Under the pieces are notes generated by a model. That model saw only the letters and a program-made list of their open reading frames with translations. It had not been told where the DNA came from and did no database searches. DNA of 64,000 bases, taken from sequence record HQ630627.1; one strand, 5' to 3'. Source of the stretch: Pseudomonas phage PhiPA3. Position numbers and translations under genes: made by a program. Position 1 is the first letter of the stretch. Every line of letters starts with the position of its first letter. Below are positions 2,268-37,356 of the stretch, piece after piece.

Positions 2268-3911
2268 ATGCCCTCAGCAACAGTCCCATTGCCGGACGTA
2301 TATGAAACAATTACCCGTAAGGTGGCTGTTGACGTCGTAAGGCAAGTCGCGCAGTACATGACCTTGCCGGAACAGACTGAAGTCTATTTACCGGGTCGCT
2401 CGGATACCGTTCCTATGAACGATGGCATGTTTGGTAATTGCTGTGATACAGCTAACGCCGTGCATTTCGATCCAGAGGAACGAGTTACTATTACTTACGA
2501 TGAAGTCGCTGAAGAGAACTTTACACTTTCTACAGCTGTAATGAACAACGAGAATTTCCCGGTGTTCTACGACGAAACTCGTGATGTTATTATGCGTCCA
2601 ATTCGTCGCTTCGTTGACTTTCGTATTGACTTTGAATATCAAGCTCCAAACGTAGTATTGGCTCAACGCTGGTTAGACGATCAACGCATTCGTTTAAGTT
2701 CGGGTGTGGGAGATCTGACGATGTCGTTGACCTACCATTACAACGTACCACCCGCTTTATTGGGATTGATGAAGGGTCTGTACGACACCATGCAGAACTC
2801 CTGCTGGCCGACAGAGTGGACCTTCCGCGAATGGATGGAAAAATATTGGGCCCAACCCCAAACCGAGATGACCACTTTGATCGGTACGCACCCCACTCTG
2901 ACCATTTATGAGCGTCAAGTGGATGTAGTGGGTCACTTTGACTTTATCAACTCTCCTGAGACTCCTCAGCAATCTAGTGATAAAGCTGGTGGCTACACAG
3001 TTAACTTCAGTTACATCTGTCGTTACGAGCGTCCAACGCATATTCGGGTTACTTACCCGATGATTATGCATCAATGTCCGATTCCGAAAGTCTTCCGTCC
3101 TAAACCGATTTATGAAAACTACCAGCAAGCTGATCGCAAGGTAACCAATCTACGGGGTTCACTGGAGAAAGCTCTGATTTTGATGCGCAGCCGCGGCGTG
3201 GATTACATCCAACATCCAGATACTGACGATTGGCATACCGATGATAAACCCATTCAACGCTTTACATTTTTTAATGGATTGCTTTGTTTGGATAAAGATG
3301 ATCCCACACAGCTACTGGATCTTTCTAAGCTAGGACGATTCACATTTACTGGTTGGTGGTTAGAGTTCTTCAAACAAGAAGGGGCACACGCAATCGCCGA
3401 TGGTTCGTTCTTTGAGTTTAGACTCTACCAGAACAACCAGAGAATTCGTGTACCTCTAACTATTGATCCGGGTACGTTGATTGTGCGTTCGACAATGCCT
3501 CTGGATCCACATCGGTATTATCACATACAGATCTCATTGGTGAAGAACCTCTACGCTATCAACGATAGATATTGGCGTTGTATTTCTCGTTACCCAACTT
3601 GCTGTTGGCAACTCTTCCATCTCTTTAACCTAGGGATTGGTAAGAGACCAATTGAGCAGATGGAACTTCTTGGTTTGTCTGGTCCTCGTCCTCCCGAAGG
3701 GGATTGTGGTGAGGAAGGTAAGACAGAATACGTGAAGGACATACCACATTTCCCACGCGGGATTGTGAAATGGGGCGATATCGCAGAGGCTCGTGATGAG
3801 CAGGATAAGAACATCATCGGTGGTCCTGGTGAATCGGGTTATGTAAACCAGAACACCTTTGGTCCAACTAATGTTCTATTTGCAAATATCATCTCTGAGC
3901 GTAAAAGTTAA
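2268..3911 (+). CDS. hypothetical protein (547 aa), probably virion-associated
   Basis: Long ORF. I chose the start at ATG 2268 (GAGG about 10 nt upstream), not ATG 2229, because 2229 lies inside the recurrent post-hairpin TTATGCCG element. Confidence 0.5.
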   Translation: MPSATVPLPDVYETITRKVAVDVVRQVAQYMTLPEQTEVYLPGRSDTVPMNDGMFGNCCDTANAVHFDPEERVTITYDEVAEENFTLSTAVMNNENFPVFYDETRDVIMRPIRRFVDFRIDFEYQAPNVVLAQRWLDDQRIRLSSGVGDLTMSLTYHYNVPPALLGLMKGLYDTMQNSCWPTEWTFREWMEKYWAQPQTEMTTLIGTHPTLTIYERQVDVVGHFDFINSPETPQQSSDKAGGYTVNFSYICRYERPTHIRVTYPMIMHQCPIPKVFRPKPIYENYQQADRKVTNLRGSLEKALILMRSRGVDYIQHPDTDDWHTDDKPIQRFTFFNGLLCLDKDDPTQLLDLSKLGRFTFTGWWLEFFKQEGAHAIADGSFFEFRLYQNNQRIRVPLTIDPGTLIVRSTMPLDPHRYYHIQISLVKNLYAINDRYWRCISRYPTCCWQLFHLFNLGIGKRPIEQMELLGLSGPRPPEGDCGEEGKTEYVKDIPHFPRGIVKWGDIAEARDEQDKNIIGGPGESGYVNQNTFGPTNVLFANIISERKS

Positions 3912-3929
3912 TAAGGAATAGGTGATTCA

Positions 3930-5348
3930 ATGTCACTCTTTGTTGAAGAGGAAGAACCACTTCCTAAGAACCCCGAAGTTGATCCGGTGGTACCTAAAGC
4001 CAGGCCAGATACTTTCCGTGGTATTGCGGTTGATACCAAGTTTATTCCACGCAGCTCTATGCTCAGGTGGATTAACGGTGCGAACTGGACCGGTACGTAC
4101 TTTGCACAGAAGCTTGACGAAACACAAGAGCCAACTCCATTGGCTCTACATCGTCAGCCTCCATACCAACAGTACATTCGAATCAACGGCATCAACATCA
4201 AGGTCAACCAGACGCTGGATATTTCCCAAGACGAGCGCATTCGCACATTCTCCGTTACGGCCACTGGTCACACCTATCCTGGTCTGACTGCTAACTACGG
4301 GGATATGTGGGTAGCCGATGTGGGAGATGGTCGGATTGGTTTATTCACTGTTACTTCTGCTCGTCGAGAAACATTCCTACGAGATTCAACTTACGCCATT
4401 GAACTGAAGATGGTCAGTTTCCTGACTCCACAACAAATGGAGGATTTGGAAAGGAAAACCATTCTAACGTATTACTGGTCGGCAAGTGCCCTAGGGGCCG
4501 GTTGTAATCCCTATGTAACTGAGCAGCAACAAGAAGACAGTAAGAACTTTGCCGCACTGCGTTCCGAAATCATTCGTCGATATATCACTGATTTCTACTC
4601 CAAGGAACACAGTACATTTCTGGTGCCCGATCAACTAGCTAAAACCTACGATCACTTTGTCACCAAGGCCATGCTAATGATGGTTGATACGCAGACTGAT
4701 GGTCGCATGCGTTTGGTGAAACTGTTGAACGTAATGTCGGAACCGGTGATGTCGCAACCTACTGTTTGGGATGCACTGGTGCGTCAGGATTCTGGTCGCT
4801 TCTGTGATAATACCGAACGTGCACATCTTGTGAATACGCGTATTTCCAGATGGCGTCCTGAATTACAGGCAATTGGTTTCTCGGGGATTGCTCGATTTGT
4901 ATTCCCAATTGATGCTCCGACAGATGTAGATTCGCAATACGACGGTGAAGACCGTGCACGACCAGAAGGTATTCCTTTCCATGAAGGACGTCCTCGTAGA
5001 CCTGAACCAGGTCCATGGCGTTCTCAGGAAGAACGTGATCTAGAATGGTTCAAACGTAAGCCACAACAATTGGTTGACGTAGCAACTGCCTGGAAGACAC
5101 CCTCCGACATTAAGCCTGTCGTAGTGGATGACTACTATGTATTCTCGCAATCATTCTACTACCAAACTCCAGTTACCCAATCTAAATTGGAACAGCTGGC
5201 TTGGCAGATGATCAACAATGAGCCTTTAAACGTTGACTCGCTTCGTGCAGTCACTAAATGTTGTTTGGGTTGGGATAACCTTGAAAGGTTCTATTACCAC
5301 CCGGTTTTGATTGCATTGCTGAAATACGCAGTGAGGATTGGTACATGA
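3930..5348 (+). CDS. hypothetical protein (472 aa)
   Basis: Long ORF with an AGGAATAGG ribosome-binding site and tight spacing to the next gene. Confidence 0.5.
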   Translation: MSLFVEEEEPLPKNPEVDPVVPKARPDTFRGIAVDTKFIPRSSMLRWINGANWTGTYFAQKLDETQEPTPLALHRQPPYQQYIRINGINIKVNQTLDISQDERIRTFSVTATGHTYPGLTANYGDMWVADVGDGRIGLFTVTSARRETFLRDSTYAIELKMVSFLTPQQMEDLERKTILTYYWSASALGAGCNPYVTEQQQEDSKNFAALRSEIIRRYITDFYSKEHSTFLVPDQLAKTYDHFVTKAMLMMVDTQTDGRMRLVKLLNVMSEPVMSQPTVWDALVRQDSGRFCDNTERAHLVNTRISRWRPELQAIGFSGIARFVFPIDAPTDVDSQYDGEDRARPEGIPFHEGRPRRPEPGPWRSQEERDLEWFKRKPQQLVDVATAWKTPSDIKPVVVDDYYVFSQSFYYQTPVTQSKLEQLAWQMINNEPLNVDSLRAVTKCCLGWDNLERFYYHPVLIALLKYAVRIGT

Positions 5349-5932: not shown

Positions 5933-7307
5933 TAAAACGCTACTCATGCGTGAAGTGAATAATGTTATTCAGTCTGGTGATGGACATTACAACTTCCGCA
6001 TGGAGATAAAGATCCTTGCTAATAAGAAATGGATCACTCCAGTTCGGTTGGATCATTATCGCCTAGTGCGTGACTATTCATCTGGACAAGTGGGTGATGA
6101 TCGTACAGTAGAGTTCCTGATGAACTACGGGGACTTTGCCTACGACATCCTACCTTATCGTGATAACCTCATTGTGGAGTACACTGAAGTTCCGTTACGG
6201 GAAGTAAATTCTGCGCGGGACTGGGACAAGCGTTCGACTACGAAACGCTATCGGGGTATCCTCAACATGAGTGGTCAATCAAACCCTGCGTTATCTTCTA
6301 AGAACTCATTGCTGCAATCACGTGAAGCATTGAATCAGATCTCGATGATCCCCATTCAGATGCAGCTCGTAGATGAATTGACTTACCGTGTTATGATGGC
6401 GTCGTATGGCAACACATTTGTGAACATGACGACTAAAGACATGGTAATCGCATCACATCACGAGGTCTTTGCGGCATTGGGTGGCACGGATGATCAACGT
6501 TTATTGGGTTGGGATATTGCCGATGGCTGGAATCCAGATGTTCATTACCAGATCGGTTTGCCAGATGGTATCCGCTTAGCTGATATCCCTCGATTTCTAC
6601 AGAACGATGAAGGTGGAATTTACCCCACTGGGATGGGTCGATATATTCAGAATCAGATCTTCTACATGTATCCGTTGTTTGATACAACTAGATTCAATAA
6701 GAAGACTAGGGTTCTGAACCTGATCAATATTCCCAGTGACCGTTACGAAGGCGCTGAGAAGACGTATAAGAGCACTGACCGACATGTGACGGTGATAGCC
6801 ACCGGTAATGCATCTTCGCTCGATGACGGGCTTGCTACGGTCTTACAACAGGGTAATGGTGTTCGCTTTGGTAATGCTAACAACCTGTTGACAGATCAAG
6901 CTGTCACCAAAGACAACAAGATGTTAATGGACCGGGCATCTAACTTGTATGAAGTCAATATTGGAAATCTCCAAACTGGCTTTAACAACACCCGATGGGC
7001 AAATGAGCGGGTAACCGCCAACCCTTATAAACAGTATTCGATTATGGCACAACGCCAAGGCCAGCAATTGGATCTGGAATGGGTTAACGGTAATCCCGAT
7101 GAATTGTACCCTGGAATGCCAGTGAAGTTTTTTACCATATCTGGCGACACTGTAAAAATTTACCACGGTACCCTATTAGGTGTAGGTGAACAACGAACCG
7201 CTTCTGATGCGTCTCCAGTAGTCAATCGGCATGTCAGTAAGTGTCAGTTGTCCGTCTTTGTCAACCGGTTTGAAATCGTAGATGACACTATAAGCCCCAC
7301 CCCTTAA
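5922..7307 (+). CDS. hypothetical protein (461 aa)
   Basis: Long ORF overlapping the previous stop. Its stop codon lies in the loop of terminator hairpin 7295-7317. Confidence 0.5.
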   Translation: MSVDKTLLMREVNNVIQSGDGHYNFRMEIKILANKKWITPVRLDHYRLVRDYSSGQVGDDRTVEFLMNYGDFAYDILPYRDNLIVEYTEVPLREVNSARDWDKRSTTKRYRGILNMSGQSNPALSSKNSLLQSREALNQISMIPIQMQLVDELTYRVMMASYGNTFVNMTTKDMVIASHHEVFAALGGTDDQRLLGWDIADGWNPDVHYQIGLPDGIRLADIPRFLQNDEGGIYPTGMGRYIQNQIFYMYPLFDTTRFNKKTRVLNLINIPSDRYEGAEKTYKSTDRHVTVIATGNASSLDDGLATVLQQGNGVRFGNANNLLTDQAVTKDNKMLMDRASNLYEVNIGNLQTGFNNTRWANERVTANPYKQYSIMAQRQGQQLDLEWVNGNPDELYPGMPVKFFTISGDTVKIYHGTLLGVGEQRTASDASPVVNRHVSKCQLSVFVNRFEIVDDTISPTP

Positions 7308-7322
7308 GTGGGGTGGGTTTAT
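7294..7322 (+). terminator. hairpin ccccacccc-ttaa-gtggggtggg + TTTAT
   Basis: A 9-10 bp GC stem followed by a U-rich tract. Confidence 0.6.
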
Positions 7323-7336
7323 ACCAGGTGACCACA

Positions 7337-7768
7337 ATGACAAACATTTATATAGCAATCGACCCGGCGTGGTCCTATGGGTTCCTAAGCGCGATATCTA
7401 ATCACATTACGTTAGATTTTAGCACGCAGAGCCGTCTCTACGAGCACGCGATGGATTTCATTCGTCTACGCCATAACTTCAACTGGAATCATGACGCTAT
7501 TGCTTTTAATACTGGTTATAACAGTATCATGATGGCGTTGCAAGAATATCCAATTGCTACGTCGTTCTTTGAGGGCATGTATCGGCAACTCTTCAATAAT
7601 TACCATCTTGCATTAAATAGCTTGGGTGGAGAGATTGCAAAGATAACAACCATTACCGATAGTGAAGGGCTGATTACCGGCATCGTCTGTCAGGTAGTGG
7701 AAACAATTCCACATATTCAAAGTGTTTTTAACCCTATATCACAGATGGGAATTAACTCCACCTGTTGA
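7337..7768 (+). CDS. hypothetical protein (143 aa)
   Basis: I chose ATG 7337 (AGGTGA 8 nt upstream). The GTG at 7313 reported in the ORF track lies inside the terminator stem. Confidence 0.45.
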   Translation: MTNIYIAIDPAWSYGFLSAISNHITLDFSTQSRLYEHAMDFIRLRHNFNWNHDAIAFNTGYNSIMMALQEYPIATSFFEGMYRQLFNNYHLALNSLGGEIAKITTITDSEGLITGIVCQVVETIPHIQSVFNPISQMGINSTC

Positions 7769-18027: not shown

Positions 18028-18452
18028 TGAGTCTGGAAAAAAGAGATGAAGCGGTAATTTACACCCATGTTGAAACCGGTGGATTGTACTACCGTAACGG
18101 TATTGCCGAAGGTGGTCATGGAAGACAAGTGGTGTTCACCAGCTACTTCGGCGGTAATGTGATGTACATGAGCGAGGCTGATTTCCAAACGGTAATGAAA
18201 CCAGCTAAAACATACGGCTTACGATTCGCTCGGACCTGGGCACCAGCCAAGTGGATAATGGTTATGTTCGCTGGTCTCATCGTTAGTCTTACCTACTATT
18301 CGATTTCTGGTAAGGTGGTCAGTGTCAATAAGTACGCAGAAGCGCTGACACTCATCATCGTAATTTCCAGTATCATGCGTTATCCGATCACATGGCTGTA
18401 TTTCTGGAAATACAATGGGCGTGAGAAAGGTATCGCTTTCTTCAAAGACTAG
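18027..18452 (+). CDS. hypothetical membrane protein (141 aa)
   Basis: ORF with a TAATG overlap and multiple hydrophobic segments. It is the last gene of the + strand early island. Confidence 0.5.
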   Translation: MSLEKRDEAVIYTHVETGGLYYRNGIAEGGHGRQVVFTSYFGGNVMYMSEADFQTVMKPAKTYGLRFARTWAPAKWIMVMFAGLIVSLTYYSISGKVVSVNKYAEALTLIIVISSIMRYPITWLYFWKYNGREKGIAFFKD

Positions 18453-19746: not shown

Positions 19747-20130
19747 TCATACATCCCCCAACGCTAAACGAACTAGGTCGTCGACGTCTAAATCCCAAAA
19801 GATACGGTTAAACCCAACACAGTCACACCACGCATAATCTCCATCGGGCATTGGCCAAGGTTTCTGGAAGACTTCAACCAGTACATTGTAACGCAGGTAC
19901 AGTTCATGAATCAGACCTTCACGACGCTCATTAACTTCAGCTTCAGAGATCTGATCGATTGGCCACGGGAATCCATTAGAGAGTTCAAACGAAACACTAG
20001 CAATCAGATTACGGATTGCAATAAGGTTCTGACTCGTTGAGTAAATCCGGATGGCCGTAGGACGCCTTTCCCTGGCGTTAAAAAGAATGTAGTTCTTGAT
20101 GCCTGACATCAAGCTGTCGATTGCCGCCAT
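19747..20130 (-). CDS. hypothetical protein (127 aa)
   Basis: ORF. Confidence 0.5.
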   Translation of the reverse strand: MAAIDSLMSGIKNYILFNARERRPTAIRIYSTSQNLIAIRNLIASVSFELSNGFPWPIDQISEAEVNERREGLIHELYLRYNVLVEVFQKPWPMPDGDYAWCDCVGFNRIFWDLDVDDLVRLALGDV

Positions 20131-20160
20131 TTATTCTTACCTTGTAAGGGATTGAATAAA

Positions 20161-20178
20161 GCCTCCCCGAAGGGAGGC
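20161..20178 (-). terminator. hairpin gcctcccc-gaag-ggaggc
   Basis: GC stem immediately after the stop of helicase exon 2. Confidence 0.5.
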
Positions 20179-20185
20179 CCTACTA

Positions 20186-20563
20186 TTAATTAGACCAAGC
20201 GTCATCGTCCATACCACCGATAATGCTACCCGGAACAATTTTGAGCGAGTAGTCTTCTTCTTTATCGATGTCCCATGGGATAATGCCACACGAACTGAAC
20301 GGCAGAAGAACATATTGGTCTTCTTCAGACGTCACAGTGTTCCGGTGCTTACCCCGTTGGATGGCGAGATACGATTTGCCTTTCACTTTGATGATGTGGT
20401 GGAACAGTTCTAGGTCAGGTTCCTGACCCAGTCGACGGCAACCGTCATAATAGCCTTTGTTGGCTACAACCTTCACGAAGTCTTCGGTGTTCTCCCGCAT
20501 GAGCTGGAGGGCATCAGAGCCGAGCTGGTGAGGACTGATAAACGTGATACCTCTCGATGTGTT
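20186..20563 (-). CDS. DnaB-family helicase, exon 2 (C-terminal 125 aa: H3 and H4 motifs)
   Basis: The reading frame is open without a start codon from about 20575. The motifs ITFISPHQL (compare SQLNR) and LAIQRGKHRNTV (compare KQRNGptGtV) occur with DnaB-like spacing. The stop is at 20186-20188. Confidence 0.6.
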   Translation of the reverse strand, partial: NTSRGITFISPHQLGSDALQLMRENTEDFVKVVANKGYYDGCRRLGQEPDLELFHHIIKVKGKSYLAIQRGKHRNTVTSEEDQYVLLPFSSCGIIPWDIDKEEDYSLKIVPGSIIGGMDDDAWSN

Positions 20564-22353
20564 CAGTAAGGTTCGTTACACCTTACCCGCGCCATTATGC
20601 GCAGCTCCAGGCTTTCCCTGGATGTCCAGACTATATCTTCACCCTCGGTTTCCCGATAGGGTGCTTCCCACTTCGAGTTCACTTGAACTCTACTCCCCAC
20701 TACGGGATAGTCGTTGAACCTTCTCCGTGCCTTTCGGTTTAGGAGCTTGGCTGCTGATTGTCCAATTTCTACACTTGTTAAACCTTCATAGACTCCTTTC
20801 GGGTCTATTGTGGTAGTAGAACTCTGAAGGAGTTTCCAGCAATTCAGGAAGTACTCGTAAAGCATTACGGCTTTACGGCCCTAAATAAGTAACCCTTAGT
20901 TTCCTTATTAGTGCTCAGATTTAATCGAATTGTTTTCTCGTTTAGACCGGTTAGACGAGCTGCTTCTTTAATAGAAGCAACCTCAGTTATAACACCGGTA
21001 TTCACGCAGGTAACCAGAATGGCTTTAGCTTGTATTGGCTTGTCGATATACGCCGAATTATCGTACTTATTCGAATCCGTGCGGATTATCCAACGCTTAG
21101 CGTAGATGTATTTCAATCCACGACTTAGGTCGACTTGCAACTCCGCTTTAGATCTCCCACAGTGATTCGCTATCTCCTGTAAAGTAGCGAAGACATGGAG
21201 AGTATTCGTTTCTAGATCACTTACGTAGTAAGGTCCAGACAGATTATTCCTACTGTAATGAATTTCACAGTGCGGAACATGCTCTTTAAAACGAATGACG
21301 AAGTTGTCGATGGTTTCGAACCGATATGGTATTCCATACGCTGTCGCAATCTGTTTTACACGATTGAACTTCCGGCTCTGTCCAGTCCGCGTATCGAAAA
21401 CCGTTATGGTGAATATCGATTTACCAACTTTAAAATCGTTTATATCAACTGTTTCGTAATGCCATGGTGTTAAGTCATCCATGGTTTTTATTTCATACCG
21501 CTTGCCCCAAAGATAACCAGGCAGTTTAGTTTGAAAACTTACAGTTGAGTTACCTACACCAATACCGAGACTTCTGTTCATCTCGCTAATGGACCTGTAC
21601 GCAGTAACTTCTCCAGTTAGGACATCCCTAACCTTCGTACCAATAGGTGTTCCATTAAGACCGACTTCCAATGCATGCTGTGCATTTTCCGAAGCATCAC
21701 ACCATTCTAGGTTAGATACGTCGTTATTGGTCTTAACTCCATCAATATGGTTAACGAGCGGTCTTTTTACGAAACATTCGTTTGGAACCCATGCCAAAGC
21801 TACTAACCGATGAAATTTTACGGTACGATTGCAATTTCGATCGGGTACTCTGATATAACACGTGTAGTAACCTTTATCATCGAGTTTCACATCCGTGATA
21901 ATCGAATTCGTTTTGGTATCTAGCACATGCCCATTGGTATCAATAGCGTATCTTGGGTAGTTTGGTATATGCCTGAACCCATCGCAGTAGTAAATCGGTT
22001 CTGCGAATGTCATTATCTTTCCGCACCTTATTCTCAAAAGCGTGTTGTCCACGTCTTTGAAAATTATTTTGTCAAGGTGTTGGGATAGATTGGGAATGTC
22101 TTCACATTCGTACCAAGCAAGTAGACTGAGCCACTCGACTGTGACTGTATACTTTTTACCAAATAGAACGATATTAACTAATCCATTCTCTTCCGGTAGG
22201 GAAACATGTTTCCCCAATCGGTCAAATATTTGACCGTTTAAATCAATTCGGTATTCTGAACTACCAGGAATCTTTTTAATCACAGCCACACCCCAAGTTA
22301 AAAAATCAACTATAGGATATCTGTAATTAAAGGTAGGTAATTTAAGGAGTGGT
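20564..22353 (-). mobile_element. group I intron (~1.79 kb) with embedded HNH homing endonuclease ORF
   Basis: The minus-strand core elements are P AATTGCTGGAAAC (~20848-20836), Q AATCAGCAGCC (~20759-20749), R GTTCAACGACTATC (20719-20706) and S GAAGATATAGTC (20640-20629). A candidate internal guide sequence ATAGTT pairs with the exon sequence AACTAT. A gtaagg-N9-ccttac hairpin sits just before the 3' splice site, which follows a G. Confidence 0.65.
20865..22289 (-). CDS. HNH homing endonuclease (474 aa) with C-terminal NUMOD/IENR-type DNA-binding helix-turn-helix
   Basis: NUMOD4-like N-terminus IKKIPGSSEYRIDLNGQIF. The HNH core is HRLVALAWVPN...VNHIDGVKTNNDVSNLEWCDASEN. The C-terminus reads IKEAARLTGLNEKTIRLNL. 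It starts with GTG 50 nt after the exon-1 stop. Confidence 0.85.
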   Translation of the reverse strand: MAVIKKIPGSSEYRIDLNGQIFDRLGKHVSLPEENGLVNIVLFGKKYTVTVEWLSLLAWYECEDIPNLSQHLDKIIFKDVDNTLLRIRCGKIMTFAEPIYYCDGFRHIPNYPRYAIDTNGHVLDTKTNSIITDVKLDDKGYYTCYIRVPDRNCNRTVKFHRLVALAWVPNECFVKRPLVNHIDGVKTNNDVSNLEWCDASENAQHALEVGLNGTPIGTKVRDVLTGEVTAYRSISEMNRSLGIGVGNSTVSFQTKLPGYLWGKRYEIKTMDDLTPWHYETVDINDFKVGKSIFTITVFDTRTGQSRKFNRVKQIATAYGIPYRFETIDNFVIRFKEHVPHCEIHYSRNNLSGPYYVSDLETNTLHVFATLQEIANHCGRSKAELQVDLSRGLKYIYAKRWIIRTDSNKYDNSAYIDKPIQAKAILVTCVNTGVITEVASIKEAARLTGLNEKTIRLNLSTNKETKGYLFRAVKP

Positions 22354-23511
22354 ATAGTTCCTCATGCGACGGAACAGCAGACGAATATCATCACCTGCTA
22401 CTTTCGCATCCAGACCAGTCTTTGGTAGCATGTTCAGGTAGTCAACCATCAGCATCTGGATTTCGTAACCCTGGGACTGGAGACCATCAAGGTAGTTGGT
22501 GAAACCACCAATGGTAAATTCAGTCGGGTCAAAACGGATCATCTTAACGTTGAAACCGTTCTCTTGCAGACGTGCACAGACATAAGCCGCAGCTTCTCGT
22601 TTGTCGATGTCAGCAACAATGATCTCTTCACCCGTTTCATTCTCACGGATATACTTGTAAATAGTTAGCAAGTTATCAGAGATTTCGTTTTCCAACGTAA
22701 CAAACAGCAACAGAGGCTTCTTCGTCTTGTCACGCATGAACGGACGGTTAAACAGAGCGATGTGCGAGAACAGCAACATTAGCATGTATGACTTGAAGTT
22801 GTGTTGCAGAGCCGCAGTGGTGATAAACTCGCCTCGACGAAATGCCCCCAAGCTACCCAGGATACGGTTAAATCCTTTCCAACCTGTTTTGAATGCACCG
22901 TCAGCAGACAGAGTAGTCTGTACCTGCTCAAAGAAATCTTCTACTGCTTCAGGCTCACTGAAGTCCAAGCAACCCATTTCAGCTGGGTGTCTACTTTCAG
23001 CACGCGCTTTGACATACGGATCGAGCTTAGCGCCCATCTCGTTAATAGCACCAGCGATATCGCCACTACCGCCACGGTTGAAAAGAAGCTTCTGCGAATA
23101 CTCTCGAACGATCTGCTTGATCTTTTCATCATTGAGGTGTGCGTTCAGCGCACTGCGACGAGAGTTGATAGCCCGCATAATGGACATCCCGTCAGGGAAA
23201 TCCTCTTTTACGCCATTGACTACCGCTTCGTACAGATAGTTTTCTTCCCGGCAACTCACTTGTACGGCTTGTAGAACTTCCGCCAAACTCGGGAAATCGT
23301 GCTTTGCTTTACTGTTCAGATCACCGACGAGCTTACGTAGTTCTAAGAACGTTTGCCGACCATGGTCGTGGTCAACAGTGGTATCACGGACTTCCAGTGT
23401 ATTGATGATTTCCGATATCAGTTCAGTTGATGGTGCAGCAGGAGAATCTTCACGGTGTTCCAAGCACAGCAGGGTAACACACTGTACGAGCAGTTGTTTC
23501 GGGGAGGACAT
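22354..23511 (-). CDS. DnaB-family helicase, exon 1 (N-terminal domain plus RecA-like core through Walker B)
   Basis: The ORF carries LLLFVTLENE (H1a-like) and IQMLMVDYLNML (Walker B). It terminates 30 aa after Walker B, which is where the intron begins. The Walker A region is degenerate (TAALQHNFKS). Confidence 0.65.
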
Positions 23512-23645
23512 TTACAGCATCCTTGAGTGTGAATTTTTTAATGATGTACCGTGTACCATTTTGTTTCTAGGTAATTTGTCGCTAAAAATAATGCATATTC
23601 CTATGTAGACTGTTTTTAAGCCTTGGTCCACTATAGGTCTTACCG

Positions 23646-24188
23646 ATGATCAAGTTACTCGTTATCCCTGAAGCTGTCTTCGATCAGTATAAAGCTGATG
23701 GCGTGGACTTTAGCAAATTGCTGTGTCCCAACTATATAGCTTCCGTAAGTTCGGTAAACGACCTTGCGGAGATTGATGCGGTTATCAACGAATTTCAGTT
23801 CCCGTTCTGCTCTGCCACTCCGATCGAGAAGGCAGAGAGTCCGGTGGTTGGGATTGCCATTAAGGCGAACTCAGATTGTGATGAACAATTCAAGATGCAA
23901 GAATTGCACAATCGTTTAGAGGAACGAATTGCCACCTTGGCACTCCGGAAAGGTAATGAACCACCTTTTGTAGGCGTTTATTACCTTTATCCTGTAGATG
24001 AGAATCTTTGGGTTGCGGTGCAGAAGAGTCTGCATACAAACAATGTCGATCCTAACCGGCTCTCTCTTAAGGCTAACCATAGCTTCTTCGATAGTATGGT
24101 TAATGAGCTGACGGCGCTACCTGGTTTCAAGTTTGAGCAGGCCGCCAACACCAATCTCTTCACTTATTATCTGGAATCACAAGGCTAA
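23646..24188 (+). CDS. hypothetical protein (180 aa)
   Basis: ORF divergent from the helicase gene, upstream of the major capsid protein gene. Confidence 0.5.
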   Translation: MIKLLVIPEAVFDQYKADGVDFSKLLCPNYIASVSSVNDLAEIDAVINEFQFPFCSATPIEKAESPVVGIAIKANSDCDEQFKMQELHNRLEERIATLALRKGNEPPFVGVYYLYPVDENLWVAVQKSLHTNNVDPNRLSLKANHSFFDSMVNELTALPGFKFEQAANTNLFTYYLESQG

Positions 24189-24265
24189 CATCCGGATCAT
24201 TCCTAGCCTTGTAATTGAAAGATATTTGCTAAACCAATACCCATCCTGCGTAGGAAACAACAGAA

Positions 24266-26509
24266 ATGAAACAACTCAAAGACCTGTTCAAGGTTAATGG
24301 TGATTCCAGCCGTACTACCTTTGGCCTGGAAGAATTCGTTGGTCACCTGACCAAAGAAGTAGACTTCGCTGACAGCATCTTCGACGCTGGCACTGGCCTG
24401 GTCAAGTCGATCGGTAACGAAGCTTTCGGTGAAAATGCTGAAGAGCAATCCGCTGCTTCTAGCCTCTACAAGCGCCTGCAAAGCATGGCCAGCAACTACG
24501 GCTTCGAAGCCTTCCAAGCTGACCCGAGTCTGAGCCAAGCTCAGATCCGCGAACAAATCCGTGTTACTGGCAACCAGCTCGCTGCCGGTACCCTCGCTGC
24601 CATCGCTTGCACCGACCAGACCGCTTACATCAAAGCTCTGCGTAAGGTCTCGGTTGAAAGCGTTTCCAACGACAAGAACGTCGTTAACGTTCAACATCGC
24701 TTCGACGGTCCTGCTGGTTCCCTGCAAGTCTTCGAAAACGGCGTTGGCCTGGAAAACTACAACGAGAAATCTCAGCGCGACTTCCGCGTTGTGACCGTTG
24801 GCTACAACCTGGCTGCTTCCCGTCAGGACGAGTTCGCTGAGCGCATCTACCCGACCACCGTTATCAACCCGATCGAGGGTGGCGTGGTTCAGGTTCTGCC
24901 GTACATCGCCGTGATGAAAGACGTTTATCACGCTGTATCGGGCCAGAAGCTTCAGAACGAAGAAGTCAACATGGTAGAAGCCTACCGTGATCCGTCCATC
25001 CTGGACGACGAGTGCACCGCTCTGATCCCGTCGATCGATCCGGCCGGCACCAACCTGAAGTTCTTCATCGACCCGACTCTGGTTGCTCCGACCACCGTCG
25101 TTAACGAACAGAACATGTCCGTCGAGACTGCTCCGCTGAAGCCGGGCATCAAGATCGATCTGATCGGTAACTCCAACGCTAGCCTGCTGATCAACAAAGG
25201 CATGCTGGACATTTCCGACACCATCGACCCCGCTGGTCGTCTGAAAGCTCTGTACGTTAAGTTCCAGGGCAAAGTGATCAAGTTCGCTGTGGATCGCCTG
25301 CCGCGTGCTGTGTTCCAACCGGATCTGGTTGGTGATACCCGTGGTGCCAAGATCGACTTCTGGTCTGACGACCTGACTGTTAGCGCCATCACCCGTACCG
25401 TTGACCAAACTCAAACCGCAGCAATGCAAGAGCTGGAACAGCGTAAGTGGGTTCTGCGTCTGAGCATGCAGTTCAGCGGTCACATCTCCACCAGCCGTGG
25501 CGACAGCCGCTTCACCGTTGGCGAAGTTTCTGTTGATCGCATCACCGACGAAGACCGTCGCAATGTTTCCCTGGAAACTGGCGCTGGTAAGACTCTGGTT
25601 GACAGCATCACTGATCTGGAGATCGTAGGTTTCGACCTGGATACTCGCTTCACCAACACCAACCGTCGTCAGCGTGGCCACCTGCTGCAAACTCGTGCCC
25701 TGCAATTCCGTCACCCGATCCCCATGCACGCTCCGGTTACTCTGCCGCTGAGCACCATGGACGAAGAAGGTCCGGGCGAAGTTGTGAAGGCACTGACCGT
25801 CAACACCAACATCCGTAACAGCAACAACGCTGTTAAACGTCTGCTGAACTACCTGGCTCAGCTGAAAGAAGTTACTGCCAATGGTTTCGACCGTCCGCAG
25901 TTCGGTGCTGTTGAAGGCGCTCTGTCGGCCGTAATGCGTCCGACCTATCGTTACAAAGAGCTGCACTTGCCCGACGTGATCGACACCCTGAAGTCGCAAG
26001 ACCGCTGGGAAGACGTCTGCTCGGCAATCCTGAACGCTGTTAAAGGTGAACTGTTCCCGGCTTACCGTGAATCGAACATCGAAGCTGCGTTCCGCGTGAT
26101 CTCGGGTAACCAAGACGAGCGTCCGATGTTCCTGTTCTGCTCGGACAAAGAGATCGCCAACTACCTGATGACCAAAGGTGATGACCGTACCCTCGGTGCT
26201 TACCTGGAATACGATCTGGTATCGACCAACAACGAACTGTTCGACAGCAAGCTGGTGGTGATCCCGACTCGTAAGAACCCGCAAGAGAACGATATCCTCT
26301 CCTTCGGTCAGTTCTTCTACGTTTCCACCGTCATCGCTGACCTGCCGATCACCCGTGGTGGTCAGCAAGTTACTCGCGAAATCGCGGCCATCCCGTTCAA
26401 CCTGCACGTGAACAACATTCCGTTCGCACTTGAGTTCAAGATCACTGGCTTCCAAGAAGTGATGGGCGAATCTCAGTGGAACAAGACTGTTGCTAGCCTG
26501 AAGCCTTGA
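24266..26509 (+). CDS. major capsid protein, phiKZ gp120-like (747 aa)
   Basis: It is the longest abundant-looking ORF in the head block. Its length is identical to the recalled length of phiKZ gp120 (747 aa). It has an AGGAAACAACAGAA ribosome-binding site and a strong terminator downstream. No motif-level proof is possible by eye. Confidence 0.55.
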   Translation: MKQLKDLFKVNGDSSRTTFGLEEFVGHLTKEVDFADSIFDAGTGLVKSIGNEAFGENAEEQSAASSLYKRLQSMASNYGFEAFQADPSLSQAQIREQIRVTGNQLAAGTLAAIACTDQTAYIKALRKVSVESVSNDKNVVNVQHRFDGPAGSLQVFENGVGLENYNEKSQRDFRVVTVGYNLAASRQDEFAERIYPTTVINPIEGGVVQVLPYIAVMKDVYHAVSGQKLQNEEVNMVEAYRDPSILDDECTALIPSIDPAGTNLKFFIDPTLVAPTTVVNEQNMSVETAPLKPGIKIDLIGNSNASLLINKGMLDISDTIDPAGRLKALYVKFQGKVIKFAVDRLPRAVFQPDLVGDTRGAKIDFWSDDLTVSAITRTVDQTQTAAMQELEQRKWVLRLSMQFSGHISTSRGDSRFTVGEVSVDRITDEDRRNVSLETGAGKTLVDSITDLEIVGFDLDTRFTNTNRRQRGHLLQTRALQFRHPIPMHAPVTLPLSTMDEEGPGEVVKALTVNTNIRNSNNAVKRLLNYLAQLKEVTANGFDRPQFGAVEGALSAVMRPTYRYKELHLPDVIDTLKSQDRWEDVCSAILNAVKGELFPAYRESNIEAAFRVISGNQDERPMFLFCSDKEIANYLMTKGDDRTLGAYLEYDLVSTNNELFDSKLVVIPTRKNPQENDILSFGQFFYVSTVIADLPITRGGQQVTREIAAIPFNLHVNNIPFALEFKITGFQEVMGESQWNKTVASLKP

Positions 26510-26732: not shown

Positions 26733-27266
26733 ATGGGCTTCTTTAGCCGATACGGTCAATGCGTAGAACGGGCTTTGCATGAGGCCCAGTGTAACCCAGG
26801 TGATATCATTATTAAATTACCTGAAACTGAAATGGAGGATGCCATTAAGAACCTGATAGACCAATCACAGAAAGAAACTACTGAGGCGTGTAATGGGATG
26901 CAAGCCCAAAAACCCCAACCTCAACAAGCACACAACCATCCACCGAAGGGTGGGTATATGCCCCCTAAAACAGATCCGTTTGAGTTGCAGATGATAGCTG
27001 CATTCGGCGGTCGTTTTCAAGAGGAGTACCCTCATGGAAAACAGCCAAAGCGCAGCCCCGGACAAAAAGTACGTGGAGCTGCGCGTGATGGGGAAGAGTA
27101 TCGGAACGTTCGAGGTCCGAGCAAAAAAGAAAAGAAATCCCAACGTCGAACCGCCAAAAGAAACTGCGAGTCCAACTCAGCAGTAACAAATAAAGGACGA
27201 GTTGTTGGGATGGTTCTGGAAGGGGTAGTATTCAATGGTGAGTATCAACCGTTCGAACGCCGCTAG
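26733..27266 (+). CDS. hypothetical protein (177 aa; extent uncertain, overlapping alternative frames)
   Basis: The N-terminal ~100 aa look protein-like. The C-terminal basic low-complexity part overlaps an alternative 50-aa ORF (27034..27186) and the start of the next gene. Confidence 0.35.
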   Translation: MGFFSRYGQCVERALHEAQCNPGDIIIKLPETEMEDAIKNLIDQSQKETTEACNGMQAQKPQPQQAHNHPPKGGYMPPKTDPFELQMIAAFGGRFQEEYPHGKQPKRSPGQKVRGAARDGEEYRNVRGPSKKEKKSQRRTAKRNCESNSAVTNKGRVVGMVLEGVVFNGEYQPFERR

Positions 27267-35149: not shown

Positions 35150-37321
35150 TTACCCCGGTAATTTCGGCCAATTAGCATCGGTTGAGTTCTTATAATCGGG
35201 TAAATCACCCGTCTCGTTGGGATTATTCACCGGCTCAATCACTACGCTCCGTACTCCGATATCGCAACCACGGATATAATAGAGTGTGTCCTTAAAGCTG
35301 GTTTCTCGTACCTCAACGAATGGGTTAATTCGCCAACGATCTTCTTGGTCGTAACGATATCGAATATTAGGCGACAAAGCATCGTCGTAGATCCTCCACC
35401 GTTTACTCGATTCCGTGCGATAGGACCTCACATTGATGTTAGCTACAGGCGTAATCAGGTTACCATCCATTAGTGAGGTGATATCCCCTACTCGCGGCAC
35501 CACCATACCCAATACATGGAAATCGGTGAATGCTACGTTTCGCAGATACTGCAACGGGTAACTTGTCAATCTCCCCATCAATGCCAGCAACTCACGTTGA
35601 ATCTGACCTAGAGTAATCACTTCATGTAGGTTAGAACCCGTAGCAATATTGATCGTATCCTGACACAGTTGTTCCAGTTCCGATGTATCTAGATCCAGAA
35701 TGTCAAAAGCCGCTGCTCTGAAATAGGCTTCAAAAGTCATACCTATTTCGGGTACCAGGTCACACTTACGATTCATGTAGTGGTACTTAGTGAGTTGTTC
35801 ACAGTAAGCTCGACTACGTTGATGCTCTTGGAACGAATACATTTCCCATTGGCGCAGGTACTCTTGATGCAGTTTAGCGCAATCTAGATAGAACTGCTCG
35901 GTGGAGATATATTGCTTGAGTGGTGTATGCATGTCCTGAATCGCTTGAATCAGCTTGTCTGAGATCAGGCGTTTAGGTACTGCATTTCTCAACTCAGTAA
36001 AGGTTGGGAAACGATCACGTAGAACATCATAGGCGATCAAACGCGGAATGGTGGGCATGGGGATATCCCGTGCCTTGCAATACGTATAGACCGTTACAAT
36101 CAACGCTGCTCGAACAGACACTGTCATGTACTCACCCGTACGCGGGTTAGGTACCTGAATATAAGCCCGATAACGATCGCTAGTGGCTAGGTGTAACCAT
36201 TCGTTAAGTAATACGGACATTAAAGTCCTTACGTTGGAATTCGAACGGTCAATAACCTCAGAGTCAAAGACTTTGGTTTCCAGAATTGAATACTGGTCGC
36301 TACCCATCTGTTCGACAATTTCTTGCTCGGCATCAAATCGTACAATCGGGTTATCGCGTGCAAGATCATCTTCACGTTCCAGTAGATCAGCAACGGTGAC
36401 TTTCTCTTGACCAGGTTGGACAATCGGGAAGTTCACATCATGCTTCACCATATCTACAGCTGGACGAAGATCTTCTAACATGTCTTCGTTGTTCTGTTCG
36501 ATAGTGTACGAGATTAACGGAATACCCCGTGGCGTGAGAATATTGTCAACCAGACGTTGCCATGTATCTTGTTTGCCGGCGTTACGTTGTATGTAAGCAA
36601 TGTTCCGATATAACCACAATTTCTGACGAATATCCAAATAAGGCATGAACTCGTCAAGTCTACCATGGGAAGCCAGGTACTCGGTGATATGGTAGCTATG
36701 GGCTTTATTAGTCTTTGCGTTACGCAGTCGGATATTCATAATTGCCAGTGGTAATTGGCAATACATATTACCCAAAAACGTAGCCAGGTAAAGATCATCA
36801 GTTAAATTAAACTGACTATTGTACCAACGGTTGATGAAGGTAGTAACCCACTCCTGTAAAAGGAAAGCAAAATTGTCTTCTTGGTCTTCAACATAATCAG
36901 GATCATAGTACAAAATAGTACCATTATTTGAATTGATCGCCGTATTAATGTCGATGGGATAGAGGATTCCGTTGATCAATGGCGTCTGGTCAGGGTACTG
37001 AAGAGCCAGTGCGTTGTAAAGCTGTGAACCAGGATAATATTCCCGTGCAGTAGCACGGTGGAGCGCTAGATTTTCTTTTGTAAAATCTATCAACTCCAGG
37101 GTGTCAGCTGAACGTACTGTCATCATGACATCAGTGGAATGGTATTCCCCCGACATGTTCAGATAGTACTTCCAGGTTTCCGGATGCTCAGGATCGGATT
37201 CAACACCGATCTCTAAGAGTCGATCATTGATCTGCGTGGCGACATCGTCAAACTTAATGACGATAGATCTCGCCAATCTCATGACATCATCACGGTAAAC
37301 ACCAAAATACATGCTACTCAT
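35150..37321 (-). CDS. hypothetical large protein (723 aa)
   Basis: Long ORF divergent from the portal candidate. I found no P-loop or RNA polymerase motifs by eye. Confidence 0.55.
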   Translation of the reverse strand: MSSMYFGVYRDDVMRLARSIVIKFDDVATQINDRLLEIGVESDPEHPETWKYYLNMSGEYHSTDVMMTVRSADTLELIDFTKENLALHRATAREYYPGSQLYNALALQYPDQTPLINGILYPIDINTAINSNNGTILYYDPDYVEDQEDNFAFLLQEWVTTFINRWYNSQFNLTDDLYLATFLGNMYCQLPLAIMNIRLRNAKTNKAHSYHITEYLASHGRLDEFMPYLDIRQKLWLYRNIAYIQRNAGKQDTWQRLVDNILTPRGIPLISYTIEQNNEDMLEDLRPAVDMVKHDVNFPIVQPGQEKVTVADLLEREDDLARDNPIVRFDAEQEIVEQMGSDQYSILETKVFDSEVIDRSNSNVRTLMSVLLNEWLHLATSDRYRAYIQVPNPRTGEYMTVSVRAALIVTVYTYCKARDIPMPTIPRLIAYDVLRDRFPTFTELRNAVPKRLISDKLIQAIQDMHTPLKQYISTEQFYLDCAKLHQEYLRQWEMYSFQEHQRSRAYCEQLTKYHYMNRKCDLVPEIGMTFEAYFRAAAFDILDLDTSELEQLCQDTINIATGSNLHEVITLGQIQRELLALMGRLTSYPLQYLRNVAFTDFHVLGMVVPRVGDITSLMDGNLITPVANINVRSYRTESSKRWRIYDDALSPNIRYRYDQEDRWRINPFVEVRETSFKDTLYYIRGCDIGVRSVVIEPVNNPNETGDLPDYKNSTDANWPKLPG

Positions 37322-37356
37322 GGTAATTTACTCACTTGTTAAATTAGGGGCTTCAA

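Follow-up and report, generated by a model that had tools for sequence, protein, structure and literature searches.

The subject of this analysis is a helicase gene on the minus strand of a 64,000-nucleotide (64-kb) stretch of Pseudomonas phage PhiPA3 (sequence record HQ630627.1), the whole of which is referred to here as the window. The gene, for a divergent DnaB-like replicative helicase of a phiKZ-related (Chimalliviridae-type) Pseudomonas jumbo phage, is very probably (probability about 0.9) interrupted by a mobile group I intron of subgroup IA, with splicing, homing and an endonuclease open reading frame (ORF) inside the P1 loop as proposed below. The intron is ordinary in kind, and its insertion site is newly described. 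The elements on which the argument is built are as follows.

22345..23511, minus strand: helicase exon 1, 389 codons, with ATG at 23511 and U22345 as last base
20555..22344, minus strand: group I intron, 1790 nt; the UAA at its 5' end is an in-frame stop directly past the 5' splice site, and its 3' end is omega-G, G20555
20186..20554, minus strand: helicase exon 2, 122 codons plus stop, starting AGA GGU AUC (R-G-I)
20865..22283, minus strand: intron ORF, I-HmuI-like HNH endonuclease, 472 aa from GUG 22283, with UAA at 20867-20865
22341..22347, minus strand: P1 5' strand, exon CCU (22347-22345) plus intron UAAA (22344-22341), with U22345 as the splice-site U
20879..20885, minus strand: internal guide sequence UUUAGGG (P1 3' strand), within the Phe-Arg-Ala codons of the endonuclease ORF

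One helicase gene in two exons

Two frames described in the initial annotation, a minus-strand ORF of 389 aa (22342..23511) and a downstream minus-strand frame that is open without a start codon (20575..20186), were both present, and its proposal that they are parts of a single DnaB-family helicase gene was borne out. The first part matched positions 1-239 of the Pfam profile divDNAB (PF20307, Divergent DnaB-like ATPase) with an E-value of 7e-98, and the second part matched positions 238-350 with an E-value of 1e-48; this continuity of the profile across the gap is far beyond chance. No ATG, GTG or TTG was found in the exon 2 frame ahead of 20500, where the first in-frame start lies 18 codons in. 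The split falls between Walker B and motif H3, within the RecA core.

Judged by the helicase, the closest deposited phages were phiHQ and PS119XW (86% aa identity), HPP-Temi (84%) and RVTF4 (66%), all Pseudomonas jumbo phages of the phiKZ group. They share the gene order of the window, with a gp119-like virion protein and a 747-aa phiKZ-type major capsid protein adjoining, and their helicase genes are single and uninterrupted (510-512 aa). An alignment to intron-less homologs, which the initial annotation had named as a check, returned such single genes and not two start-bearing fragments.

Exon 1, which ends ...AAC UAU ACC ACU CCU (N-Y-T-T-P), aligned with the intron-less helicases of HPP-Temi, RVTF4, phiHQ, phiKZ and 201phi2-1. 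At the junction these relatives read ...LLFRRMRNYTTP RGITFISPHQL..., with RNYT[TA]P/RGITF common to all five, and the phiHQ DNA at the site is AACTACACTACTCCT/CGTGGTATCACT. Joining U22345 to A20554 gives RNYTTP/RGITF, which matches phiHQ at each of the 24 residues spanning the junction. The ligated junction in the messenger RNA is predicted to be ...ACCACUCCU/AGAGGUAUC..., corresponding to ...CGCAUGAGGAACUAUACCACUCCU/AGAGGUAUCACGUUUAUC... in spliced complementary DNA (cDNA). The product predicted from this junction has 511 aa, the length estimated earlier, and matched divDNAB with 503.5 bits in one stretch (profile positions 12-350 of 356).

The initial annotation was thus correct that a group I intron splits the helicase gene, but it placed both splice sites nine bases away, at an intron of 22353..20564 instead of 22344..20555. 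Since both junctions yield 511 aa by coincidence, the motif spacings on which it relied were misleading. It had also dismissed an ORF at 20563..20865 as spurious, in agreement with the present data: this ORF lies wholly within the ribozyme, had no match in the Pfam search, and no gene is called there in homologous loci.

Covariation of the ribozyme and its splice sites

Homologs of the intron endonuclease provided the comparative set. Fifty-eight near-full-length homologs (~470 aa, 28-68% identity) were found, nearly all from metagenome assemblies, and every one down to 34% identity whose context was fetched lies in a divDNAB gene beside a phiKZ-type capsid gene. These loci share the order exon 1, ORF, ~300 nt and exon 2, and the Rfam core was found in each complete locus. 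A scan of IMG/VR with the single endonuclease protein returned nothing, and a scan of the same database with the family alignment did find loci. For covariation, 13 complete introns of 1773-1863 nt from uncultivated phiKZ-like contigs were used, loci L018 and L019 being left out. Identity to the window was 30-42% for their helicases (75% in L077), 34-65% for their endonucleases and, in nucleotides, 54-68% for their cores. The intron occupies the identical codon boundary in at least 13 metagenomic contigs and is absent from the closest isolates, a presence/absence polymorphism at one site.

The covariance-model search suggested in the initial annotation gave a match to Rfam Intron_gpI (RF00028) at 20900..20607 on the minus strand, over the full model (1-253), at an E-value of 1.3e-19 and with 83.1 bits, where the gathering score is 50. 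The P, Q, R and S elements that had been recognized by eye sit exactly on the corresponding consensus blocks of the Rfam alignment, and in the rest of the window no further Rfam match was obtained besides Intron_gpI. The predicted parts of the ribozyme are listed below.

20607..20900, minus strand: catalytic core P3-P9 with P7.1 and P7.2 (Rfam RF00028 and covariation)
20856..20877, minus strand: P2 hairpin (CGUAAAGC / GCUUUACG), whose loop holds the endonuclease stop codon
20851-20845/20670-20664, minus strand: P3
20841-20836/20757-20752, minus strand: P4
20712-20708/20633-20629, minus strand: P7 (GACUA/UAGUC)
20663-20659/20644-20640, minus strand: P8
20621-20617/20611-20607, minus strand: P9
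20555..20606, minus strand: 3' tail with P9.1, P9.2, the P9.0 3' strand (U20557-C20556) and omega-G, G20555
20604-20599/20592-20587, minus strand: P9.1, part of the 3' tail
20586-20581/20571-20566, minus strand: P9.2 (gtaagg/ccttac), part of the 3' tail

Covariation fixes both predicted splice sites of this group I intron. At the 5' site, exon 1 ends in NCU followed by UAA in all 13 homologous loci, and UUAGGN lies directly 5' of the P2 hairpin. P2 covaries strongly, with compensatory changes at all 8 pairs and 97% of cells paired over the 13 sequences. The predicted P1 of the window joins exon and guide through a U22345.G20881 wobble, C22346-G20880 and C22347-G20879, and extends into the intron through U22344-A20882, A22343-U20883, A22342-U20884 and A22341-U20885. 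The U.G wobble between the splice-site U (U-1) and the first G of the guide, and the pairing of exon C(-2) with its second G, were present in 13/13 loci. Exon position -3 also pairs with the third guide position in every locus, through changing combinations (CG 6, UA 3, GC 2, AU 1, GU 1), an agreement matched by none of 200000 permutations. In the RNA polymerase (RNAP) gene intron of locus L010, the exon end AAU stands against GUU at the guide position. For P10, the exon-2 purines at +2 to +4 can pair with the U-run of the guide in 10, 10 and 13 of the 13 loci.

At the 3' site, a G precedes exon 2 in 13/13 loci, and exon 2 always begins 8 codons ahead of a conserved HQ. The third and fourth J7/9 nucleotides after AUAGUC pair with the two nucleotides preceding omega-G in all 13 loci, forming P9.0 in five combinations (GA/UC in the window; GU/AC, UU/AA, CU/AG and AG/CU elsewhere), and none of 100000 permutations matched this agreement. 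In the window the predicted pairs are G20626-C20556 and A20625-U20557, next to omega-G at G20555. The gtaagg-N9-ccttac hairpin (20586-20566) reported in the initial annotation exists, but not directly at the 3' splice site; it corresponds to P9.2 and ends 10 nt before omega-G.

Within the core, RNAalifold was applied independently to an alignment of ORF-deleted mini-introns from the 13 complete loci (alignment A3) and recovered P2, P3, P4, P5, P6, P7.1, P7.2, P8, P9 and P9.1, with compensatory changes at 41 of 65 pairs. An explicit P1-P9.2 model including the P7 pseudoknot left 82.5% of cells paired, and 67 of its 94 pairs had changed on both sides. P7 and much of P4 are invariant across the 13 loci, and most other helices keep their pairing by compensatory change, indicating selection for folding. 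P7 and the flanking J6/7 and J8/7 are the same in 13/13 loci; such invariance yields no covariation and is consistent with a guanosine-binding site. GAAA tetraloops are found on P5b, P6b and P8a.

In the Michel-Westhof classification, the hallmark of subgroup IA is a pair of extra hairpins, P7.1 and P7.2, between P7 and P3'. Here P7.1 has 4 pairs, all compensatory (96% paired), and P7.2 has 6 pairs, all compensatory (84-90% paired). Because both hairpins are present and covary, the intron was assigned to subgroup IA.

The endonuclease gene, its placement and its leader

Mechanical ORF calling gave a frame of 474 aa (20865..22289) that starts two codons earlier, at GTG 22289; the start at GUG 22283 was preferred on the basis of homology with the conserved N-terminus M-[IF]-K-K-I-P-G. 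The earlier prediction of an HNH homing endonuclease was supported by Pfam matches above the cutoffs for NUMOD1 (39.5 bits; cutoff 22.8) and HNH_3 (26.0 bits; cutoff 24.8). The residues H160, N180, H181, N193, N202 and H205 are invariant in 31 endonuclease homologs at 27-67% identity, indicating that the gene is under selection and not decaying. The enzyme is I-HmuI-like and most likely a nickase.

The initial annotation had set the ORF between P1 and P3. The guide follows the body of the ORF, which places the ORF within the P1 loop; both the guide and the P2 5' strand are encoded by the 3' end of the ORF. Its last codons, UUU-AGG-GCC-GUA-AAG-CCG-UAA (F-R-A-V-K-P-stop), double as these RNA elements, with the stop codon in the P2 loop. 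The residue after the conserved Phe-Arg is Ala, Pro, Ser or Thr, exactly as the guide nucleotide opposite exon -3 requires, so that pairing with the host exon determines the identity of one endonuclease residue. The literature search yielded no paper establishing the rarity of P1-loop ORFs.

A strong hairpin lies in the 61-nt leader that runs from the 5' splice site to the start of the ORF.

22276..22330, minus strand: leader hairpin, which buries the Shine-Dalgarno sequence GGGGUG (22294-22289) and the GUG start codon at 22283, and includes ATAGTT

Its minimum free energy (MFE) is -22 kcal/mol (z -4.7), a value reached by none of 200 shuffles. An equivalent start-codon hairpin, built from unrelated sequences, is present in 12/13 loci (z -2.1 to -5.2). 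The hairpin likely serves, by analogy with I-TevI of T4, to mask translation of the endonuclease on read-through transcripts.

Promoter-like and terminator-like elements were also noted around the gene.

23570..23577, minus strand: AAATTACC, phiKZ middle-promoter-like, 59-66 nt upstream of the helicase ATG
22336..22343, minus strand: second copy of AAATTACC, at intron +2..+9
20155..20178, minus strand: terminator-like stem-loop GCCUCCC-UUCG-GGGAGGC followed by UUUAUU, 8 nt past the helicase stop codon

The middle-promoter motif of phiKZ is AAanTTACc, at about -24 (PMC4666361). The sequence AAATTACC occurs six times in the window, the other copies being at 18053-18060, 26814-26821, 35157-35164 and 37322-37329. 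Motif enrichment over 14 intron leaders was weak (equalled in 79 of 2000 shuffles), and only the leader of the window stood out (P 0.026), so that the motif copies offer a lead only. A transcript starting inside the hairpin would unmask the ribosome-binding site of the endonuclease, but a promoter for it is only hinted at. In the homologous loci L008, L016 and L078, CAAATTAC was seen at the 5' base of the masking hairpin, and AAATTACC occurs again at the start of the RNAP-gene intron of L010. A sigma-70 promoter and terminator scan of 19900-23800 remained at or below background; it is uninformative, since phiKZ-type phages use their own polymerases. The stem-loop at 20155..20178 was not flagged by the simple terminator scan.

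Proposed mechanism, alternative readings and relation to known introns

In the proposed mechanism, the precursor RNA would be transcribed through both exons, and P1 would arise by pairing of the guide UUUAGGG with exon CCU and intron UAAA, the 5' splice site being marked by the U22345.G20881 wobble. An exogenous guanosine, bound in P7, would attack this site. P9.0 and a weak purine:U P10 would then bring omega-G20555 into the guanosine site, and ligation of the exons, by what we infer to be self-splicing, would give the 511-aa helicase ...RNYTTP-RGITF.... A ribosome finishing the ORF and the folded ribozyme could not occupy the same RNA simultaneously, because the last ORF codons encode the guide and the P2 5' strand and loop. 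On a read-through transcript, the conserved hairpin would hide the ribosome-binding site and start codon of the ORF. The most likely targets of the I-HmuI-like enzyme are helicase alleles without the intron in co-infecting relatives, cut near ...ACTCCT/CGTGGT..., after which repair would copy the intron in (homing) or the competitor would be damaged.

Several points weigh against this reconstruction. Splicing is a prediction from comparative data. P1 is short (three exon and three to four intron pairs) yet has to close a loop of ~1.45 kb, an unusual arrangement that other structure or proteins may have to assist. P10 is weak, with three purine:U pairs and position +1 unpaired. The guide also has an alternative pairing near the 3' end: RNAalifold paired guide-side UUUAG (20881-20885) with a conserved CUGAA/CUGGA (20562-20566) that lies 7-11 nt 5' of omega-G. 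This pairing is kept in 12/13 loci by one-sided U-A/U.G changes only, and it excludes the intron half of P1; it could reflect refolding once the first step of splicing is over, or two separately constrained segments may match by coincidence. For the endonuclease, the sole match among PDB sequences, to I-HmuI (1U3E) at residues 113-210 over the I-HmuI sheet and HNH region, is weak (E 0.006), and an I-HmuI_NUMOD-like domain at residues 431-470 scored 21.5 bits, under the Pfam cutoff of 27.

The statistics of the covariation also call for caution. In controls for the explicit model, column shuffles left 68.5+-0.8% of cells paired (0/500 reached 82.5%), a figure that overstates independence because the 13 sequences share descent, and slid partners left 37-45%; the slid controls and the distinct pair types are unaffected by shared descent. 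Independent compensatory events are fewer than the cell counts suggest, with a minimum of 4 each at exon -3 and P9.0. Finally, the Pfam score favors the TTP junction over that of the initial annotation by 3.2 bits, a margin that is small and not decisive alone. Independent RNA evidence was sought in covariation for this reason, and the junction was assigned mainly from homolog identity and covariation.

Of the other explanations, the one that survives best concerns the role of the endonuclease. It is possible, though on balance unlikely, that the enzyme is retained chiefly as a weapon against co-infecting relatives that lack the intron and not for homing, acting only if imported into the phage nucleus of the rival. 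Even at 27% identity the 31 homologs keep the catalytic residues unchanged, the element is maintained at a single site in helicases that share 30-42% identity, and there is precedent in the same virus family, where gp210 of PhiPA3 has such a role (PMC11620839, PMC12908238). A weapon would, however, be compatible with homing, and the presence/absence pattern fits ordinary homing cycles equally well; any effect on fitness is presumptive.

It is very improbable that the element is a decayed, non-splicing relic, the helicase then being made as two assembling polypeptides (389 + ~104-122 aa) or having lost its function. The splicing is, as stated above, predicted, gene callers annotate two divDNAB pieces in metagenomic loci, and the exon 1 frame meets a stop codon directly after the splice site. 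Against this, exon 2 has neither a start codon nor a ribosome-binding site at its 5' end, the core has been conserved across the 13 loci by compensatory change, the split lies inside the RecA core, and at the junction the exons have kept the same sequence as relatives without the intron.

A guide upstream of the ORF, which would place the ORF between P1 and P2, is slightly less credible still. In the window, GGGGUGUGG (22294-22286) can be drawn against exon CCACUCCU with 7/8 pairs and a U.G wobble, or 15 bp when the first bases of the intron are included. This G-rich run is the Shine-Dalgarno sequence of the endonuclease and is paired inside the masking hairpin in the MFE structure; nothing complementary corresponds to it in the other 12 loci, which have different exon ends, and the downstream guide covaries perfectly. 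As a guide candidate, GGGGUGUGG was rejected as not conserved.

The least probable alternative, which is already refuted on comparative grounds, is the same intron spliced at the junction of the initial annotation, 22354/20563 (RNY/NTSRG; cDNA ...AACUAU/AACACAUCG...), with ATAGTT (22313-22308) as guide: the hexamer is present and perfectly complementary to exon AACTAT, a G precedes 20563, and the frame and product length are intact at a Pfam score just 3.2 bits lower, but the splice-site U would face A and not form the group I U.G wobble, the obligatory U is replaced by C in 6/13 homologous introns and no complementary hexamer is conserved, P9.0 forms at the equivalent 3' site in 0/13 loci (13/13 for G20555), intron-less relatives have TTP where this junction has NTS and so require U22345/A20554, and ATAGTT is one arm of the conserved masking hairpin, the guide being UUUAGGG at 20885-20879.

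The distribution of the intron, read as a mobile element spliced at U22345/A20554, was followed beyond the 13 loci. No intron-sized interruption was seen among the 303 phage records matched by tblastn with the spliced helicase, 302 of which matched in one place, and 60 rows sampled across the ranking of these records were all single-piece. The only two-place match, Aeromonas phage AP1 (MT713136), was rejected as a candidate: its two ORFs abut, with no intron-sized gap, and probably reflect a frameshift. In this locus (L081, 221040-222666) the ORFs are annotated 'virion structural protein' and 'hypothetical protein' and lie beside split ribonucleotide reductase beta fragments. The AP1 record is classified in Straboviridae yet holds a phiKZ-type helicase-like match, which looks like frameshifts or mis-annotation.

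In the two loci left out of the covariation set (L018 and L019; IMG/VR 3300014815_000002 and 3300011985_000047), exon 1 ends ...RNFCSS and is followed by WKLK before the stop, and the intron starts with UGGAAAUUAAAAUAA, not UAA. The HQ landmark gave no start for exon 2 within 600 nt of where the ORF ends, so that these introns may be longer, or rearranged.

An ORF followed by the core, with the Rfam match starting ~30 nt before the ORF stop, was also found in the RNAP-gene introns of fnug, phiKp_32 and L010. Pseudomonas phage fnug, a phage of the phiKZ species (MT133560, 2616-5648; L003), has adjacent Intron_gpI matches at 3451-3746 (87.5 bits) and 3899-4203 (74.8 bits). Its HNH ORFs fnug_68 and fnug_69 are followed closely by a 71-aa fragment that the record labels non-virion RNAP beta', and no intron is annotated. 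Among full-length relatives of the endonuclease, the most distant (29-32% identity) are in Klebsiella phage phiKp_32 (LC768500, 1622-5558; L004) and in L010 (ENA contig NODE_6_length_240734, 2720-6719). They belong to other split genes, in which the ORF again precedes the core; the downstream part in L010 matches RNA_pol_Rpb2_6, and the parts in phiKp_32 are all annotated 'hypothetical protein'.

Two further observations concern neighboring genes. In the phiKZ-like contig Ga0246235_100570 (JGI 3300029892; L012), a 401-aa IS605 OrfB/TnpB-type gene (6472-7677; OrfB_IS605, Cas12f1-like_TNB) is encoded on the opposite strand, ~350 nt downstream of the helicase that contains the intron. In the window, a 750-aa minus-strand ORF (24203-26455) is antisense to nearly all of the 747-aa major capsid gene (24266-26509, plus strand). 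Its translation is of low complexity and rich in V, G, D and Q, and it is almost certainly a shadow ORF.

Among known introns, the T4 td intron with I-TevI is a phage intron of subgroup IA, and on its read-through transcripts a hairpin sequesters the ribosome-binding site of the endonuclease. It would thus resemble the present intron in subgroup and in its hairpin-sequestered start, the hairpin of the window being kept in 12/13 loci. I-TevI is a GIY-YIG enzyme with its ORF looped out of P6, whereas the ORF of the window fills the P1 loop and shares sequence with the guide and P2. As a further difference, an internal promoter to unmask the start is only hinted at in the window.

The SPO1/SP82 DNA-polymerase intron of Bacillus phages (I-HmuI, PDB 1U3E) is likewise a phage group I intron in a replication gene, with another host gene and insertion site. 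I-HmuI has the N-terminal sheet and the HNH motif in common with the endonuclease of the window, and NUMOD-type modules are present. It has 174 aa, whereas the protein of the window has ~110 extra N-terminal residues and a much longer C-terminal region. Group I introns have also been reported in helicase genes of the Staphylococcus myoviruses Romulus, Remus, K and G1 (cited in PMC5526547). These phages are of an unrelated group (Herelleviridae), and the likeness drawn here is in the type of gene interrupted.

Group I introns with HNH endonucleases are established in chimalliviruses, those described being in RNAP genes (PMC11620839, PMC12908238). PhiPA3 gp210 is the HNH nicking endonuclease of a group I intron in the chimallivirus virion RNAP beta-subunit gene (Birkholz et al. 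2024, PMC11620839); it nicks a phiKZ gene and confers a competitive advantage (PMC11620839, PMC12908238). The gp210 intron and the helicase intron belong to the same virus group, and both lie in the gene of an essential, conserved nucleic-acid enzyme and carry an I-HmuI-like HNH ORF. The core of the window is ~70-75% identical in nucleotides to those of the phiKZ-group RNAP-gene introns. They differ in host gene (a DnaB-like helicase, not an RNAP) and in the endonuclease, which is far longer in the window (472 aa) and belongs to a separate ~470-aa family almost confined to metagenomes. The activity and competitive effect of gp210 are known by experiment; activity, import and competition are presumptive for the endonuclease of the window. 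A description of the RNA architecture of the gp210 intron was not found in PMC11620839, so that the ORF-in-P1-loop layout is not comparable between the two. Searches of the literature turned up no account of a helicase intron in chimalliviruses, of this helicase site in phiKZ-like phages, or of the intron RNA architecture in PhiPA3.

Gene callers break this essential helicase into two or three bogus genes, here and in the phiKZ-like contigs examined, and the exact junction U22345/A20554 restores the predicted 511-aa protein for annotation. The 13-member comparative set provides unusually clean covariation of P1 and P9.0, including an endonuclease amino acid dictated by an exon base pair. The replicative helicase would be a second target-gene class beside the RNAP introns of chimalliviruses, whose intron endonuclease has been shown to decide the outcome of co-infection.

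A more far-reaching interpretation, put forward tentatively and rather doubtful at present, is that these introns form a distinct group I lineage adapted to nucleus-forming jumbo phages, with the ORF in the P1 loop, with translation and folding exclusive of each other but tolerated through splicing in a ribosome-free nucleus, and with the endonuclease retained as a weapon. The invariance of catalytic residues across host genes diverged to ~35% identity would suggest a weapon role beyond the homing cycle. If such a lineage exists, translation of the ORF and folding of the ribozyme would be mutually exclusive on each RNA, which would be tolerable since splicing would be nuclear and translation cytoplasmic. 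Should the placement of the ORF in the P1 loop prove to be tied to this separation of transcription and translation, the helicase intron would be a small, direct example of intron architecture following cell biology.

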